Shown piece after piece: positions 5,506 through 31,326 of a stretch of DNA of 31,326 nt. The translations under genes were made by a program, and so were the position numbers. The stretch is taken from NCBI GenBank assembly GCA_964016885.1, contig CAXHJY010000893.1:1-31326 (forward strand), read 5' to 3'. This DNA is from Eledone cirrhosa (taxonomy: Eukaryota). The notes below the pieces were generated by a model that was not told the DNA's origin, searched no databases, and was given only the letters and a program-made list of their open reading frames with translations. Numbering within the stretch: the first letter of the stretch is position 1; each line of letters begins with the position of its first letter.

Positions 5506-5619
5506 TTTCTAGGATATATATGTGTCTGTTGGTATGTATATCATATATATATATATATGGCTGACGAACGAAGCATCAATAACATCAGAATGCTTTGTGA
5601 AACTCCGAGTACCTAGAAA
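5506..5619 (+). ncRNA. Type I hammerhead ribozyme motif with intact core and interrupted stem I
   Basis: CUGACGA 5561-5567; stem II ACGAAGCAU/AUGCUUUGU (9 bp, one G-U); GAAAC-UCCGA-GUA 5599-5611. The 3' CCUAGAAA is complementary to UUUCUAGG at 5506-5513. Confidence 0.7.
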
Positions 5620-5730
5620 GGTATAAGCCGGTTTGCCATGTATTATATATATATATACATATATATGTATATACATATATATAGATATATGTATATATAT
5701 ATATATATATGTATAGTAATAATAATAAAA

Positions 5731-5865
5731 TTGAAGAGGATCCGCTAAGGTGAAACAATTGTTCTCGGTATGGTGAACTAACTGTTGTGTAACCACTTCT
5801 ACCTAACTCGTCCCTTGGACTGAGTGCTCTACCACTACGGATATTACCTTCCAGTGTTCCACCAC
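5731..5865 (+). mobile_element. Short (TA)n-flanked element with decayed hammerhead 3' half
   Basis: TTGAAGA...GAAAC-AATT-GTT (palindromic stem III), then GAGTGCTC at 5822, then the large TA array. Stems I and II are weak. Confidence 0.45.
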
Positions 5866-5922
<57 letters not shown>

Positions 5923-5945
5923 ATATATATATATATATATATGTG

Positions 5946-5978
<33 letters not shown>

Positions 5979-6015
5979 GTATATATATATGTATATATAT
6001 ATGTATATATATATG

Positions 6016-6078
<63 letters not shown>

Positions 6079-6109
6079 GTATATATATATATATGTATAT
6101 ATATATATG

Positions 6110-6174
<65 letters not shown>

Positions 6175-6533
6175 GTATATATATGTATATATGTATATAT
6201 ATATATGTATGTATATATATGTATATATATATATGTATGTATATATATGTATATATGTATATATATATATGTATGTATATATATGTATATATATATATGT
6301 ATATATATATATGTATGTATATATATGTATATATGTATATGTATATGTATATATATATGTATATATGTATGTATATATATATGTATATATATATATATAT
6401 GTATGTATATGTATATATATATATATGTATGTATATATATATGTATGTATATATATATGTATATATATATATGTATGTATATATATATGTATATATATAT
6501 ATGTATATATATATATGTATATATATATATATG

Positions 6534-6578
<45 letters not shown>

Positions 6579-6873
6579 GTATATATATATGTATATATAT
6601 ATGTATATATATGTATATATATATGTATATATATGTATATATATATGTATATGTATATATATGTATATATATATGTATATATATATGTATATGTATATGT
6701 ATGTATATGTATATATATGTATATATATATGTATATACATATGTGTATATATATATATGTATATATATATGTATATGTATATATGTATATATGTATATGT
6801 GTATATATATATATGTATATATATATGTATATGTATATATGTATATATGTATATATGTATATATGTATATATG

Positions 6874-6920
<47 letters not shown>

Positions 6921-7287
6921 GTATATGTATATGTATATATATATATATGTATATATATATGTATATATATATGTATATATATATATGTAGATATATATGT
7001 ATATATATATATCTATATATATATGTAGATATATATGTATATATATATATCTATATATGTATATATATGTATATCTATATATATATGTATATATATGTAT
7101 ATCTATATATATATGTATATATGTATATATGTATATATATATGTATATATGTATATATGTATATATATATGTATATATGTATATATATATATATATGTGT
7201 ATATATATGTGTATATATATATATATGTATATATGTATATATATATGTATATATGTATATATATATATATATATGTATATATATACA

Positions 7288-7342
<55 letters not shown>

Positions 7343-7903
7343 GTATGTATATATATATGTATGTATATATATATGTATGTATATATATATGTATGTGTAT
7401 ATATATATGTATGTATATATATATGTATGTATATATATATGTATATATATGTATGTATATATATATGTATATATATATATATGTATGTATATATATATGT
7501 ATATATATATGTATGTATATATATGTATATATATATGTATGTATATATATATGTATATATATATGTATGTATATATATGTATATATGTATGTATATATGT
7601 ATGTAATATATGTATGTATATATGTATGTAATATATGTATGTATATATATATGTATATATATATGTATATATATATATGTATATATGTATATATATATGT
7701 ATATATATATGTATGTATATATATATGTATGTATATATGTATATATATATGTATATATATATGTATATATATATGTATATATATGTATCTATATATGTAT
7801 CTATATATGTATATATATGTGTATATATATGTATATATATGTATATATATGTATCTATATATGTATATATATATCTATATATGTATATATATATCTATAT
7901 ATG

Positions 7904-7976
<73 letters not shown>

Positions 7977-8006
7977 GTATATATATGTATATATATATGT
8001 ATATGT

Positions 8007-8052
<46 letters not shown>

Positions 8053-8428
8053 GTATATGTATATATATATATGTATATATATATGTATATGTATATATAT
8101 ATATGTATATATATATGTATATATATATATATGTATATATATATGTATATATATATATGTATATATATATGTATATATATATGTATATATATATATGTAT
8201 ATATATATGTATATATATATATGTATATATATATGTATATATATATATATGTATATATATATATGTATATATGTATATATATATATATGTATATATATAT
8301 ATGTATATATATATGTATATATATATATATATGTATATATATATGTATATATATATATGTATATATATATGTATATATATATATGTATATATATATGTAT
8401 ATATATATGTATATATATATATGTATAT

Positions 8429-8478
<50 letters not shown>

Positions 8479-8529
8479 GTATATATATATATATGTATAT
8501 ATATATGTATATATATATATGTATATATG

Positions 8530-8580
<51 letters not shown>

Positions 8581-8725
8581 GTATATGTATATATATGTAT
8601 ATGTATATATATATATGTATATATATATATGTATATGTATATATATATATGTATATGTATATATATATATGTATATATATGTATATGTATATATAAATAT
8701 GTATATATATATATATATGTATATG

Positions 8726-8756
<31 letters not shown>

Positions 8757-8765
8757 GTATATATG

Positions 8766-8815
<50 letters not shown>

Positions 8816-8907
8816 TGTATATATATGTATATGTATATGTATATATATATATATGTATATATATGTATATATATATATATATATGTATATATATGTATAT
8901 GTATATG

Positions 8908-8954
<47 letters not shown>

Positions 8955-9045
8955 GTATATATATGTATATGTATATATATATATGTATATATATATATAT
9001 GTATATATATGTATATGTATATATATATATGTATATATATATATG

Positions 9046-9090
<45 letters not shown>

Positions 9091-9171
9091 GTATATATAT
9101 ATGTATATATATATATGTATATATATATGTATATATATATATGTATATATATATATGTATATATATATATG

Positions 9172-9207
<36 letters not shown>

Positions 9208-9227
9208 TATGTATATATATGTATATG

Positions 9228-9261
<34 letters not shown>

Positions 9262-9305
9262 TGTATATATATATGTATACATATATATATGTATACATAT
9301 ATATA

Positions 9306-9371
<66 letters not shown>
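5866..9371. repeat. ~3.5 kb compound (TA)n/(TATATG)n microsatellite
   Basis: Seen directly. Interruptions are almost all G on the + strand, with C variants mainly near the right end. Confidence 0.98.
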
Positions 9372-9375
<4 letters not shown>

Positions 9376-9452
9376 GTAATTCCAGGAAAAAAGAGTGCTC
9401 TATGTAGGTAACAGAGCTTAATAGTTATGTAATAAACAACATAAGGCAATTA

Positions 9453-9512
9453 TTTCATTTACCAGTAATTTCTTAAAAGCCAAAAAATCTGCTTTCAATC
9501 ATCAGAATGAAA
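9453..9512 (-). ncRNA. Type I hammerhead ribozyme (sense copy of element A)
   Basis: UUUCAUU-CUGAUGA-UUGAAAGC...GCUUUUAA-GAAAU-UACUG-GUA-AAUGAAA, giving a 7-bp stem I and an 8-bp stem II. Confidence 0.8.
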
Positions 9513-9523
9513 AAATAGGATTT

Positions 9524-9584
9524 TTTCATTCTGATGATTGAAAGCAAAATTTTTTGGCTTTTAAGAAATTACTGGTAAATGAAA
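9524..9584 (+). ncRNA. Type I hammerhead ribozyme (inverted copy in element A)
   Basis: Stem I 9524-9530/9578-9584; CUGAUGA 9531-9537; stem II 9538-9545/9557-9564; GAAA 9565-9568; GUA 9575-9577. Confidence 0.8.
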
Positions 9585-9636
9585 TAATTGCCTTATGTTG
9601 TTTATTACATAACTATATATATATATATATATATAT

Positions 9637-9845
9637 ATAGGAACCAGTAAGACACCGACGGCTGAGCTCAAGCCGTTTCGACGGCTAATTCTGGACTAAA
9701 GATTTAGTCCAGAATTAGCCGTCGAAACGGCTTGAGCTCAGCCGTCGGGTTCTTACTGGTTCCTATTACCCACTCTACTACCCTAAGTATTGAGTACTTT
9801 GGTGCGTTATGGTCCACCTGGTTCCTTACCACATTTCCTTCGTTA
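9637..9845 (+). mobile_element. Element B: 130-bp palindrome with hammerhead 3' half plus tail
   Basis: 9637-9700 pairs with 9703-9766 (2 mismatches). Contains GAAACGGC-TTGAGCTCA-GCCGTC. Tail has TATTGAGTACTT. (TA)n on both sides. Second copy at 15996-16196. Confidence 0.8.
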
Positions 9846-15995: not shown

Positions 15996-16196
15996 AACGA
16001 AGGAAGTGTGGTAAGGAACCAGATGGACCATAACGCACCAGAGTACTCAATACTTAGGGTAGTAGAGTGAGTAATAAGAAAATGTTCAAGACCCCGACGG
16101 CAGAGCTCAAGCCGTTTCGACAGCTATTTCTGGACTCTAGAAATAGCCGTCGAAACGGCTTGAGCTCTGCCGTCGGGGTCTTGAACATGTTCCTAT
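15996..16196 (-). mobile_element. Element C: second copy of element B in the opposite orientation
   Basis: 15996-16080 is the reverse complement of 9761-9845 with few substitutions. Palindrome at ~16074-16196 centred at ~16135. Confidence 0.85.
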
Positions 16197-16408: not shown

Positions 16409-16540
16409 CATATAGGCCTACACAGGCGATTGTGTATATACATATATATGTATGTATATATATATATTTATAGATATTTATATATATATATATACATACA
16501 TATATATGTATATACACAATCATCTGTGTAGGCCTATATG
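16409..16540. repeat. ~130-bp inverted repeat with a TA-rich centre
   Basis: CATATAGGCCTACACAGGCGATTGTGTATATAC... pairs with ...GTATATACACAATCATCTGTGTAGGCCTATATG. Confidence 0.85.
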
Positions 16541-17214: not shown

Positions 17215-18127
17215 TGTATCCATATATATAATTTTGTTTATCTTATTTACATGCAATATAGCTATATCATTTCAACCTGCTTGTGTGCATGCATACACAC
17301 AATACACTTGCACATGCGGACTTAAACAGACAAAAATATATTCTCACATACACCTTCACGTATAAACAAACAAGCAAAACTACATACACACACATGCATA
17401 CAGAGAGACGCGCACACACATACACATAGTACACCTAATTTCACACACACACAGAGACGCACACGCGATGATGATATTCGCACATAATACAGATTTATAC
17501 ATAGATACAATTTTACATAAACATACGCACCCATTACACATGCTATCATGAAACAAATGTAGACACAATTACACATAGAGTGAAACAATTATAATCAACA
17601 GAACGCATATACGTACATGCACATATTTATAAAAGCAACATAGAGCGGAAACCCACAAATGGAAACCTACACACATTTACTTACATATACGCATATAGGA
17701 ATGAACACAAATACAAACACGCGGCTACTCGTACACCACATATACAGTTGCAAATATACAAATGTACACACCTTTTCCATGACCGACACACATTGACACA
17801 TATGTACTTATATATATTTGTGTGTGTGTATCGAAGGGGTGTGTCCATTTCTATGTATATTTACAGCTGTATATGTGCGCCAGTAACCGCGAGTTTATGT
17901 CCACAGCTATGTATATATGACTAATGGCAGCTTAAGGATGACAAAATGTATACAGCTCCGAAATAATTTTTTTCTATTAATCTTTTGATGAAGGGATTTT
18001 ATCCTGTAAAGAACTACCAGGTAACACCTCAACATCACTGTTATCATATTTAACATTTGCCGTCCAATTCACATTGTGGTAGCTATTAAACAAAACACAC
18101 ACCCTCATTTCTCTCTCTCTCTCTCTC

Positions 18128-18569: not shown

Positions 18570-19427
18570 ATGTAACAAAGTTACATTTCCGAGGTAATTT
18601 AATCTAAAGATAAGGGAACGGATACAAATGCTGTTTTCATAGTCGAAGTTCGTTCCCTTGTCTTTAGGTTGGATGACGAGCAACTGCGTGAGCTGGTGGA
18701 AGCTGACCCACGCCAGACATCACGCCAAATCTCCGGCATGTTTGCGGCATCGAAAATAAGGCATGCAACAGAGAAGGTATCTAAGAAGCTGGACCAATGG
18801 AGTGCCCCACAATCTGAATGCCCGTAATCATGAATATCGGGTGCGACTTCTCTGTTCTCCTACCATCGCACAACCAACTGGTTACATTCCATTGTCACTG
18901 ATGATGGAAAATGATGTCTCTACATTAATGTCAAGCACAAGCGAACGTGGGTTGATAAAGAGTGCACCACAACGGTAAGCAAAGGCCCTACTGAGCGTTT
19001 GGTGTGACTAGAAAGATGTCATGCACTCCGAGCTGTTCCCACTGACACCAGCATAACCTCTGACGTCTATTGCGAACAACTTGACAGATTAGCGGCGAAT
19101 AACGCACAGGTACGTCCTCACCGTGGTCCTGTTCGATTCTTTCATGATAATGTTCGGCTGCATACATCAAGGACGACCCGTGAGAAGCTGCTGGAGCTAG
19201 GTTGCGAGGTTCTGCCCCACCCGCCGTATTCATCCGACCTCAAGCCTACAGACTATCAGATTTTTTTCTCAATGAGAAAGACCTTCGCTAACGAAAACTA
19301 GTTAAATCTGTGGCTGACGGAATTCTTTGAATCGAAGCCAGAAGAATTGTGCAGGGATGGAATCATGTGCCTTCCTAATCGATGGCAGACGGTAATCGCA
19401 AATGATGGTGATTATTTTGACTTCTAA
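18570..19427 (+). pseudogene. Decayed mariner (DD34D) transposase
   Basis: Across frames: VTKLHFR; LDDEQLRELVEADPRQ; W-VPHNL; IVTDDGK*; HDNVRLH...HPPYSSDLKPTDY (34 residues between the two Asp); LPNRWQTVIANDGDYFDF*. Contains stops, frameshifts and deletions. Confidence 0.93.
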
Positions 19428-19745: not shown

Positions 19746-20114
19746 TATTATAAACAAAACTAAACTAAAACCCCGCTTTCTTTGAAATCACAATCATAAC
19801 ATTTGACGGAGTGTGTCGCTTCTAAAATCGTTTAAGTGTAAAACTGCTCATTCTTCATTTTTTCCTGAATGTCTAGATAAACTGCATCAAGTTGACGTAG
19901 AACAAAAAAGACACAAATATGCAACGCTGCTCACAATCAGCTTATATATTGTTAAGATTGCGGATCGAATTACAAAAACGTTGCTCAATCTGTTGGTAAT
20001 TAATTCGAAGTCTGCAAAAAGAATTTTTAACAAATAAATATAAAAAAAAGGATAAATGAAAATATGAGATTGAATTTGTCACAACATTTCACACAAATAC
20101 ATTTCAAAAGTGTT

Positions 20115-20605
20115 TTTAGGCAGGGCCAGAGCAACTTTCCATCAGTTGAGAGATGTCTGGAGCTCTTCTGCTCTCTCGACTAACACTAAGATATTCAATA
20201 TCCCTGTGAAGCATGTTTTGCTATATGGGGAAGGGGCCCGGAAAACTGCCATTACCACCATGAAGAGAATACAAACGTTCATCAACACCTGTCTCAGGAA
20301 AATTCTTCGGATTCGCTGGCCAGACATGATTAGTAAACAGGAACAGAAGCAGCGAACTCAGCAAGTGTCTGTCTATGATGACATTTTTTAGAGGCAATGG
20401 AGATAGGTTATTCACACCCTTTGAAAACAACATCTAGTACTATAAAGCAAGCTCTGACCTGGAAAATAAAAAGAGGAAGACCTAAGAATACCTGACACCG
20501 TGATCTGAAGGAACAAGCGGAGGTAGGACATTCCTGCGGGACATTTGGAGCGACTAGCCCAGGGTTGAGATGGCTGTAGAAATTTTGTTGGTGGCCTATG
20601 CTGTT
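20115..20605 (+). pseudogene. RTE-clade LINE ORF C-terminal fragment
   Basis: GRARATFHQLRDVW...VLLYG...IQTFINTCLRKILRIRWPDMIS...KQALTW..KRGRPKNT...FVGGLC, with stops and frameshifts. Confidence 0.9.
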
Positions 20606-25304: not shown

Positions 25305-25530
25305 TGCAATGCCTGTGCATGAAGATTTTCTTTAGAGTGAGGTAAGACTGTGTATTGAGCCAATCCCACTCTCTGAACGACATTAGCTATAACCAGAAAA
25401 GAAGAAAAGATCAACATCATCGGTTACTGAGCGGCAGGTTTTATGTCGGAGTTATCCCAGTTGCCTTCTCCTAGAAGAATGCCATAGCAAAGGCTAGGGG
25501 TCCTTCACTACTAGTGGTTTAACCGCGCGA
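25305..25530 (-). mobile_element. Older relative of the bipartite RTE-derived element
   Basis: Shares GCAATGCCTGTGC, CCCACTCTCT, TCAACATCAT, CCTTCTCCTAGAA and CAAAGGCTA with 26281-26470. Confidence 0.75.
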
Positions 25531-26070: not shown

Positions 26071-26659
26071 GGTGGCTGCCAACTCGTTTTCGAGTACGGC
26101 CACTACTTTATATCCATGCAGAAGAACCCCTACCGATGCGCTGAACGAGTGTGACTTTTTAGTCCAGCCAGCGACATGAAAACTCTGGTATAAACACTAC
26201 ACTTGTGACAATTATTGACACATAGTGCTAGGCCCATTGTACCATGTGACGACAAGTGCAGAGAGATCTCCAGATATAAAGCAATGCCTGTGCCATGAAG
26301 GTTTTATAGTGAGCAAAGGCACTGCACAAAGCCAGTCCCACTCTCTTAACCAAGATGATATTTACCAAAAAGAAGAACAAGTCAACATCATTGGATACCA
26401 TCAGGGTTGCAGGTGTTATATCAGAGTTTTCCTTCTCCTAGAATTCTGCTTTGACAAAGGCTAAGGGGTCATCTCTCCCGGTGATTTTGGATGGCCATTG
26501 ACTCTTAAGAGCTCCTTTGCCCTTTGACAGGTTTTGTTTTTAGTCCTGCAGGATGTCCAAAGTCACCCTCCTCACCAAGAAACCTGGGTGGGGTTGCCAG
26601 TTTAGTCGCCAACGACCCGACCATGAGACCATGAGACCATGAGACAAGTTGTACTGGGA
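26071..26659 (-). mobile_element. Bipartite non-autonomous RTE-derived element, copy 1
   Basis: 5' part with CTAGGAGAAGGAAAACTCTGA joined to a C2H2-encoding ORF end (KCSVYTRVFMSLAGLKSHTRSAHR*), 3' end GTACTCGAAAACGAGTTGGCAGCCACC and a (TATG)n tail. Confidence 0.75.
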
Positions 26660-27184: not shown

Positions 27185-27230
27185 GGTGGCTGCCAACTCG
27201 TTTTCGAGTACGGCCACTACTTTATATCCA

Positions 27231-27594
27231 TATAGCGAGAATACTAGGTTGTATGAATGTAACAAGGAATACATTGTTTGTGTAGATAATATTTAATTAA
27301 CAATGGTAGATAGTATAGTTGACATGTCAAAGTAATAGATGATAGAATGAAGCAAAGTTAGTAGTTACCGTTTTGATTGCCAGGCAAACGCGGCTGGCAG
27401 AGGACGCCTGGCTAAGGCCAGGCGCCTGTTGGCCAAATGAATGGCAGAGCCAAATGAGAGGCTCTTGACCTGGTGCCGAAAAGGCAATGAGAGAATGAGA
27501 GCTTAAAGTTGTTAGTTTTATAGGGTTCTGACTGGAAGTTGCAGAAAGGGTTCTACTTCCCGTCTAGATCCAAACAAGGGAGACAACCGCTACA
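27231..27594 (-). repeat. 3' LTR
   Basis: Direct repeat of 28964-29327. Has TATAAAA and ATTAAA on the minus strand. Confidence 0.95.
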
Positions 27595-27597
27595 TAA

Positions 27598-27607
27598 CCT
27601 CCCGCCA
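27598..27607 (-). other. Polypurine tract
   Basis: TGGCGGGAGG-TTA immediately before the 3' LTR. Confidence 0.6.
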
Positions 27608-28930
27608 GAATTTTAGTGTATAAAAATCGAAATGAAAATATGTAGCAAGTTGGCGAGAATGTTGTAACAGGCATGAAAATTACGACAAAAGAATGTTTGG
27701 AAAAATCAATGATAGATATCAAGGTAGCCAACCGCTCTTGGCCAGAGAACGACTGGACATCCATCTATCCATCACCCAAAGATACAATGTAATAAAGTAA
27801 AAGTAAGAGAAGAGCTCAAAGTTCAAAATATAGTTCACAGGTGTGCAATCACTTGACAGCAGGAAAGAAAGTGTGTTCCAGAGAATGAATGCAGGTGGTT
27901 TCTGTTCTGTGGTATATCGTGAAATTTCCAACCTCCGAATGGATTTTCTCACAGGAAGAGTGCTGCAAAAATAAATTCTCTGGCTTTGGTTGTTGGTGAA
28001 GCTGTGTTGATGTATTGCTGCTGCTGTTGCTGTTGTCTCGCTGAGTGAGCGTATTCGGTGTTTAAATTCACAGTAAAAAAAAAAAAAATTTTTTAGAAAA
28101 AATGAGTTGCGCAAAGTGCTAGAAATAGCAGCCGAAGTTGATGGTCGATGTTGAGAATGCGTTGACCTGGAAGGGTCAAGAGGCCAGCGACCAGAGAAAT
28201 AAGCATTCTTAATAAATGCGCGGTTATCAACGGTAAATTTACATTGTAAATTTATAAACCGGCAAATAGAAGAATATAGCTTAAGGCTGAAGAATCCTTG
28301 GCGAGAAATGTTATCTCTGGCGTGCGGCTTTGTCTGTGAGTAGAGACATCTCTGTGAATCGAGAATTTGTGCTGCCTACACGTGCCAATACAAGGTTGAA
28401 AAAAATAATATTTCTAACGCGCGAGAAAATGATAGTGCAAGTGTGAAAGTGACAATGATGAAAAAGAAAGGCTTCACTCAGCATAATTATTGGTGTGAAC
28501 TTTGGGAAAAAAAAAAACTTGAACGATGAAGAAAACGATGAACAAAAAGGCAATGGTTCATCGAAAATAAATGTTCCTGTTGAAATGTTTTTTTAAAGAA
28601 TATCGAATTTCTTTTTTTCCCTTTTTTTTTGTTTTGAAAGAGTTCGTTGTAAGACACGAGAAACATATATATATATCGTGAAATGTTTTTTTTTTTGTTT
28701 TGTTTTGAAAGTGTTCGTTGTAAGAAACGAGAAACATATATATATTGGTGAAATGCGACAGTTAGTTGATGCGTGAGAGAAAAAGTCTGTCTGTGCAAAT
28801 TCCACATGTGCGTGTGTGCGTGTCCTTGAGTATTTTCATAGTTTGTCGATAAATTTGCTGTGTATTCGTAATGTTACTCACACAAAACCAGATGTGCTAT
28901 TTTTTGGGGTGACCACCTATAGCGATGAAC

Positions 28931-28962
28931 GGCTGCGTGTTCATATCACGTCGGGGTCACCA
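28931..28962 (-). other. Extended primer-binding site complementary to tRNA-Trp positions 45-76
   Basis: The + strand reads GGCTGCGTGTTCATATCACGTCGGGGTCACCA, i.e. the tRNA-Trp 3' end including CCA, 1 nt from the 5' LTR. Confidence 0.9.
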
Positions 28963-28963
28963 A

Positions 28964-29327
28964 TATAGCGAGAATACTAGGTTGTATGAATGTAACAAGG
29001 AATACATTGTTTGTGTAGATAATATTTAATTAACAATGGTAGATAGTATAGTTGACATGTCAAAGTAATAAATGATAGAATGAAGCAAAGTTAGTAGTTA
29101 CCGTTTTGATTGCCAGGCAAACGCGGCTGGCAGAGGACGCCTGGCTAAGGCCAGGCGCCTGTTGGCCAAATGAATGGCAGAGCCAAATGAGAGGCTCTTG
29201 ACCTGGTGCCGAAAAGGCAATGAGAGAATGAGAGCTTAAAGTTGTTAGTTTTATAGGGTTCTGACCGGAAGTTGCAGAAAGGGTTCTACTTCCCGTCTAG
29301 ATCCAAACAAGGGAGACAACCGCTACA
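28964..29327 (-). repeat. 5' LTR
   Basis: Direct repeat of 27231-27594. Confidence 0.95.
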
Positions 29328-29736
29328 TACATATAGGAGAACCCCTACCGATGCGCTGAACGAGTGTGACCCTTCAGTCCAGCCAGCGACTTGAAAACTC
29401 TGGTACAAACACTACACTTGTGACAAATATTGACACATAGTGCTGGGCCCATGGTACCCTGTGACGACAAGTGCAGAGAGATCTCCAGATATAAAGCAAT
29501 GCCTGTGCCGTGAAGCTTTTATAGGGCAAAGGAGCTCTTAAGAGTCAATGGCCATCCAAAATCACCGGGAGAGATGACCCTTTGGCCTTTGTCAAGGCAG
29601 AATTCTAGGAAAAGGAAAACTCTGATATAACACCTGCAACTCTGATGGTATCCAATGATGTTGACTTGTTCTTCTTTTTGGTAAATATCATCTTGGTTAA
29701 GAGAGTGGGACTGGCTTTGTGCAGTGCCTTTGCTCA

Positions 29737-31127: not shown

Positions 31128-31326
31128 TATAAGATCAAAAGATGGTTAAAGGAGTTCAATATATTTTATTATGCGCATTTCAAAAACAAACATCATTAAA
31201 CAATAATATTTGTGTTTTCATCAGATAAAACAGGAGAACATGATATGAAGGCTAAAAAAACACTTGTTGATAGTGCAGTTTTAAATCAACATATGCATTG
31301 CTTTATTGTACTACAATAAAACTCAC

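Follow-up and report, generated by a model that had tools for sequence, protein, structure and literature searches.

We identified, within a 31,326-nt contig of Eledone cirrhosa (the whole of which is the window below), a short fold-back element carrying a hammerhead ribozyme motif on each strand. The element probably works like the pseudo-LTR stump of a Penelope-like element (PLE) joined to its own inverted copy, a severely 5′-truncated insertion in (TA)n, a reading to which we give a probability of roughly four in five. It lies in a non-repetitive island between a 3.5-kb (TA/TG)n array on the left and a short (TA)n run on the right (Table 1). Positions 9421-9616 form a 196-bp near-perfect palindrome whose arms, separated by a 3-nt centre, differ from each other by a 1-nt indel and a substitution, both within loop II, and (TA)n is reached at both ends. 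Only the left arm extends beyond the position at which its partner gives way to (TA)n, into a tail that can form a 7-bp hairpin (z -1.8, matched by 11 of 200 shuffles and thus weak by itself) with a loop that differs between family copies. A first-pass annotation of this DNA had reported the palindrome in (TA)n and both hammerheads, which our analysis bears out, and had passed over the tail and a weakened stem III.

Table 1 Coordinates of the fold-back element, its flanks and the adjoining insertion
Feature	Position	Strand	Remarks
(TA/TG)n microsatellite array, left flank	5866..9372	none	Likely target
One-sided tail of ~48 nt	9373..9420	-	3′ end of long arm; stem-loop
Long (left) arm	9421..9516	-	Hammerhead-bearing element end
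Type I hammerhead motif	9453..9512	-	C3 9505, N17 9460
Fold-back centre	9517..9519		3 nt equal to family upstream sequence in the right arm's direction, judged from loose ends behind 9516
Short (right) arm, inverted, tail-less	9520..9616	+	Directly into (TA)n; 244 X8 reads with same end
Type I hammerhead motif	9524..9584	+	C3 9531, GUA 9575-9577; stem III with two U-G pairs (C-G in family)
Short (TA)n run, right flank	9617..9639	none
Second, unrelated fold-back family insertion, adjoining	9640..9843	+	124-bp palindrome plus 80-nt one-sided tail

The motifs on the two arms are oriented outwards and present the type I order of core elements (CUGANGA, GAAA, UH) together with stems I to III. On the plus strand stem I pairs 9524-9530 with 9578-9584 (7 bp) and stem II pairs 9538-9545 with 9557-9564 (8 bp including one G-U), the core consists of CUGAUGA (9531-9537), GAAA (9565-9568) and GUA, and stem III is reduced to A-U, U-G and U-G pairs closed by a 3-nt loop; cleavage would be expected after 9577. 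A descriptor search of the window, with stems I and II each of at least 4 bp, returned these two motifs against a mean of 0.007 matches per shuffle; stems of 7 and 8 bp arose in 0 of 300 block-wise dinucleotide shuffles. The complete type I hammerhead claimed earlier for both strands is therefore supported, although the two matches represent one event rather than two since the motif is duplicated by the palindrome. Of the motif searches proposed in the first-pass annotation, our own descriptor recovered both arms; no Rfam hammerhead model was present in the eight matches to 9519-9620 at E ≤ 10, which is a test of the library and not a structural requirement. All eight of these, and across the window the Rfam matches among the 150 of 285 listed, were sub-threshold, of microRNA or snoRNA type, and derived from TA repeats and hairpins.

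To place the element within a family we used the long arm (9374-9519) as reference and collected reads and contigs at 80 % likeness from four of the ten listed public runs. This yielded 1,588 contigs from run X1, 17 from X2, 3 from X6 and 2,798 raw reads from X8, a high-copy repeat found under three organism labels. Apart from N7, which differs in 350 of 608 reads (57 %), 11 of the 12 core positions had no variant above 3 %, the exception being G8 (altered in 106/608 reads, with two starts), and 7 of the 10 positions of loop II vary, a count which the indel there may inflate; these frequencies come from a threshold that favours conserved reads and from RAD reads that sample loci unevenly. Four of the six variable stem positions retain their pair (as G-U/G-C or A-U/G-U), and the pair is broken at 9492 (23/586 reads) and 9498 (239/610 reads). 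The stem changes are one-sided only, with zero double compensatory changes in per-site data that are unable to reveal two-sided ones. The first pair of stem II is U-A in this copy and C.A in 239 of 610 reads, and the conserved G10.1-C11.1 is absent. A fixed core with N7 and loop II free is, as judged from read variation, the profile of a hammerhead selected in its source elements. Loose ends at 9464 (36 contigs) and 9474 (16 contigs) have consensuses that, compared by eye, point to sister subfamilies with a common 3′ part and a different stem II hairpin.

The ends of the family mirror those of the two arms. In X8, 244 reads run from 9421 directly into (TA)n as the right arm does, and loose ends at 9381 (895 reads) and 9384 (309 reads) carry a slightly different tail that likewise ends in TA repeats, so both end types, with and without the tail, occur among family reads. 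At the opposite end, 347 X8 reads continue unfolded behind 9516 with an agreement of 0.73, compared with 0.33 at the restriction-cut ends of the library, which indicates that many copies are part of a longer element. All six rows of listed joints change strand. Four of these, supported by 21 X8 reads, are fold-back joints of 9513-9516 to 9516, one of which is also present in an X1 contig, and the other two link 9419 with 9516 (3 reads) and 9445 with 9480 (4 reads). The clustering at 9516 is partly made by the reference, which departs from the family after this position and so hides fold-backs lying farther upstream. Among the loose ends listed, depth shows no step across the cut site at 9454-9468 (281/609, 276/595 and 275/590). 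Read-end pile-ups at 9448 and 9451 were rejected as biology; their position coincides with an AATT site, and we attribute them to the restriction cut of the RAD library.

The first-pass annotation had proposed a non-coding, TA-targeted Penelope- or retrozyme-like insertion. The PLE half of this proposal fits every testable feature (the inverted copy, the tail on one side, the (TA)n target and a hammerhead-type pattern of conservation among copies), making membership of that group likely, and the retrozyme half is weak, no head-to-tail joint being found in any of the six rows. The arm is indeed free of ORFs, with no ATG-started ORF of 20 aa overlapping it, unlike pseudo-LTRs that contain an ORF start, but the 347 reads extending unfolded upstream make it likelier that a longer element was truncated to this stump than that the insertion stands alone. 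Pfam detected no reverse transcriptase or GIY-YIG family in 209 stop-to-stop frames of at least 45 aa in the window (low-complexity frames left out), as expected for a stump. A distinctly unlikely variant of this reading is that the source was a non-autonomous, non-coding hammerhead element of a few hundred bases, SINE- or retrozyme-like and mobilised by a PLE in trans, of which the stump represents most of the unit. The 3′ part occurs at very high copy number and the arm lacks an ORF, both of which would suit such an element, as would published indications, in the accessible portions of the papers, that solo pseudo-LTRs act in cis, the ORF being provided in trans (PMC3846280), and that animal retrozymes derive from PLE pseudo-LTRs (bioRxiv 10.64898/2026.07.22.740005). 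It is opposed by the lack of same-strand joints, by the absence of a tandem array of the unit from 62 TRF rows and by the upstream extension of the 347 reads in sequence that is neither tail nor (TA)n.

It appears very improbable that assembly or library preparation produced the palindrome as a fold-back artefact of a single family copy. The locus does lie inside a long low-complexity array, the listed joints do not include the exact junction of this copy with its 3-nt centre, and none of the listed public runs contained half of the sampled words. The arms however stop at the two natural ends of the family and differ from each other at two places, joints of a similar kind occur among the raw reads and once in a contig from a different run, and two copies of a second family within the window share the layout. 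Least probable of all is a MITE-like fold-back DNA transposon that targets TA, is mobilised in palindromic form and has its hammerhead as passenger or by chance, for which the near-perfect palindrome, the TA at either end and a DDE transposase fragment within the window could be cited, but against which stand the tail on one side only, the variable centres, the 347 unfolded versus 21 folded reads at the centre, the absence of terminal inverted repeats that are symmetrical and end at fixed positions common to copies, and a hammerhead-specific conservation in which N7 alone is free.

The second family, which adjoins the element on its right, has a further copy at 15997-16192; both copies are flanked by (TA)n and carry an 80-nt tail, and their centres lie ~11 nt apart. 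Their arms agree at 50/52 and 52/54 positions within copies compared with 46/55 and 45/56 between copies, which fits a mirror arm built anew at each insertion. In the long arm of this family GAAAC...GTC encloses a 6-bp stem whose loop is near-palindromic, an arrangement resembling a hammerhead 3′ half truncated inside stem II, with no CUGANGA left. Pattern scans for the hammerhead family gave 0 loci in metagenome and viral contigs, and one for the second family gave 0 loci in viral contigs; these are non-host collections, uninformative about the family.

Further hammerhead-like motifs were observed in the window. Between TA runs at 5558-5640 (+) there is a core at 5561, a 9-bp stem II, a GUA ending at 5611 and a 2-bp stem I, likely a different truncated PLE end. 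By the last TA array, at 31160-31230 (-), inspection by eye revealed a 6-bp stem I, an intact core at 31224, a stem II with 8 of 9 pairs and a perfectly palindromic stem III; its stem II mismatch explains why it was missed by the descriptor. In a (TA)n island at 5716-5865 (+), a degenerate core of hammerhead type lies near 5733, together with a candidate for a palindromic stem III. Other repeats in the window are of different kinds. Direct repeats of 367 bp, 99.5 % identical, flank 1.37 kb without a Pfam match at 27230-29329, which is on its sequence a young non-autonomous LTR-type element, and what we take to be a primer-binding-site-like motif lies on the minus strand at ~28945-28962. Fragments at 19008-19298, 20074-20388 and 29348-29518 match DDE_3/rve, DUF6451 and C2H2 zinc finger, the first two presumably being remnants of a mariner and an RTE-type LINE. 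A dispersed repeat is present in pieces at 26109-26523, 29324-29734 and 25306-25502 with one 212-bp part inverted between copies, and there are more fold-backs at 16412-16537 and 17715-17896, one centred on a TA run and one old (72 % identical).

The copy described here carries letters that are rare in the family at 9467, 9468 and 9481, positions at which the family letter was present in 739/860, 849/858 and 648/662 X8 reads respectively, and the rare letters are present in both arms. Two of the three convert C-G pairs of stem III to U-G in both arms, so the ribozymes of this copy are probably inactive. Compared with the family, the predicted energy of its stem III hairpin is +4.5 rather than +0.4 kcal/mol and that of the stem III motif self-duplex -3.6 rather than -8.2 kcal/mol. 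The computed probability of the ribozyme fold as a monomer is 2e-6, with unremarkable monomer folding z-scores (-0.5 and -0.8); nearest-neighbour folding leaves out the tertiary core, so that poor ribozyme formation is itself a prediction. A read-through RNA is predicted to bury the ribozyme inside the hairpin of the whole element (-140.8 kcal/mol versus -3.5 kcal/mol for the ribozyme fold), in agreement with the earlier suggestion that a transcript spanning both arms would sequester it. Dimerisation of two hammerheads in cis was considered and discarded, since a transcript contains a single hammerhead plus its complement, the latter being transcribed first. The locus is thus best regarded as a probable dead remnant. 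Since the rare variants are common to both arms, a single template molecule is the most likely source of both arms, although the shared variants may also stem from later gene conversion.

For the truncated PLE insertion that we favour, we infer the identity of the enzyme and the order of events as follows. The GIY-YIG endonuclease of a PLE would nick AT-rich DNA, and reverse transcriptase would start at either of two sites at the RNA 3′ end, giving a tailed or a tail-less arm. The enzyme would read through the uncleaved hammerhead and halt a few bases 5′ of stem I, after which the mirror arm would be made from the same template by snap-back or template switch. The inverted second copy would accordingly be a probable product of the same insertion event. 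The clustering of joints at the 5′ edge of stem I, with no pile-up at the cleavage site, leads to the further thought, unlikely as we judge it, that the fold of the hammerhead and not its cut sets the point of stalling and snap-back in reverse transcription. Were this so, the family would serve as a read-out from nature for the self-priming model, itself a proposal, PLE hammerheads would have a non-catalytic, structural job, and thousands of short dsRNA-forming hairpins would have been seeded in microsatellites.

As a single locus the element matters little, being most likely a dead retrotransposon stump of published layout. The family is of wider use. Its high-copy, short palindromic insertions allow the start of the mirror arm relative to the ribozyme to be mapped copy by copy, and as a data set it can tell whether both arms derive from one template, and so bears on the origin of the inverted repeats of PLEs and on the role of their hammerheads. 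For annotation it carries a warning too, in that such stumps resemble MITEs or microRNA hairpins and escape Rfam hammerhead models.

Published systems are compared here on the accessible portions of the papers cited. No description of the family was found in the accessible literature on octopus and cephalopod hammerhead families and on palindromic hammerhead PLEs in microsatellites, although repeat libraries such as Repbase and Dfam, or supplements, may list it. A study of Octopus vulgaris lists active Penelope families in a main text whose accessible part is without hammerheads (PMC13282606). Non-LTR retrozymes (PMC7229834) are alike in being small, non-coding and of high copy number, with a type I hammerhead in an animal-type genome. 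Retrozymes are however defined as tandem units (PMC7229834; bioRxiv 10.64898/2026.07.22.740005) and form head-to-tail arrays and circles with canonical hammerheads, whereas the present element is head-to-head and minimal and no tandem joint was seen. None of the public runs listed as containing the element is an RNA run, which speaks neither for nor against expression as circles.

The Poseidon element PAc of the green anole (PMC11167929) shares with our family two 3′ ends around a stem-loop tail and an AT-rich target. There the tail is tied to two reverse transcriptase start sites in the stem-loop, cutting is AT-rich, and hammerhead cleavage was unnecessary for insertion in vitro; in the accessible part of that work, as here, cleaved RNA shows no sign of use in insertion. 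Unlike our element, over whose arm there is no 20-aa ATG frame, the ORF of PAc starts inside its hammerhead.

The minimal hammerheads of PLEs (Cervera and de la Pena 2014, PMC4209133) are likewise of type I, with a helix II of 7-8 bp and a tiny helix III suited to dimers, a dimer model reviewed in PMC6765202; the accessible account reports no cleavage as monomers and low cleavage as dimers. Helix I is 7 bp here as opposed to the 4-5 reported, and stem II opens with U-A or C.A in place of the typical, non-obligatory G10.1-C11.1 after an extra nucleotide. Stem III and loop 3 differ in forming an imperfect palindrome, and the opposite-strand motifs lie ~25 bp apart rather than the 100-700 bp of the dual motifs described.

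The closest likeness is to EN+ PLEs (PMC8557442, PMC3846280), whose insertions often comprise a head-to-head inverted 5′-truncated copy with a tail on one side only, pseudo-LTR repeats containing hammerheads, a microsatellite or AT-rich target and, in the accessible descriptions, no discernible target-site duplication. Self-priming from the junction palindromes has been proposed for this arrangement (PMC3846280). Our element departs from it in retaining no ORF between the arms and in a tail of ~48 nt compared with 30-40 bp. Among types with a target bias, Naiads likewise insert into (TA)n but are described as lacking canonical hammerheads in the accessible part of PMC8557442, and Neptune elements favour microsatellites (PMC8557442); our nearest guess for the closest PLE type is a (TA)n-biased Neptune, and the layout of the element is one already published for the PLEs of other animals.
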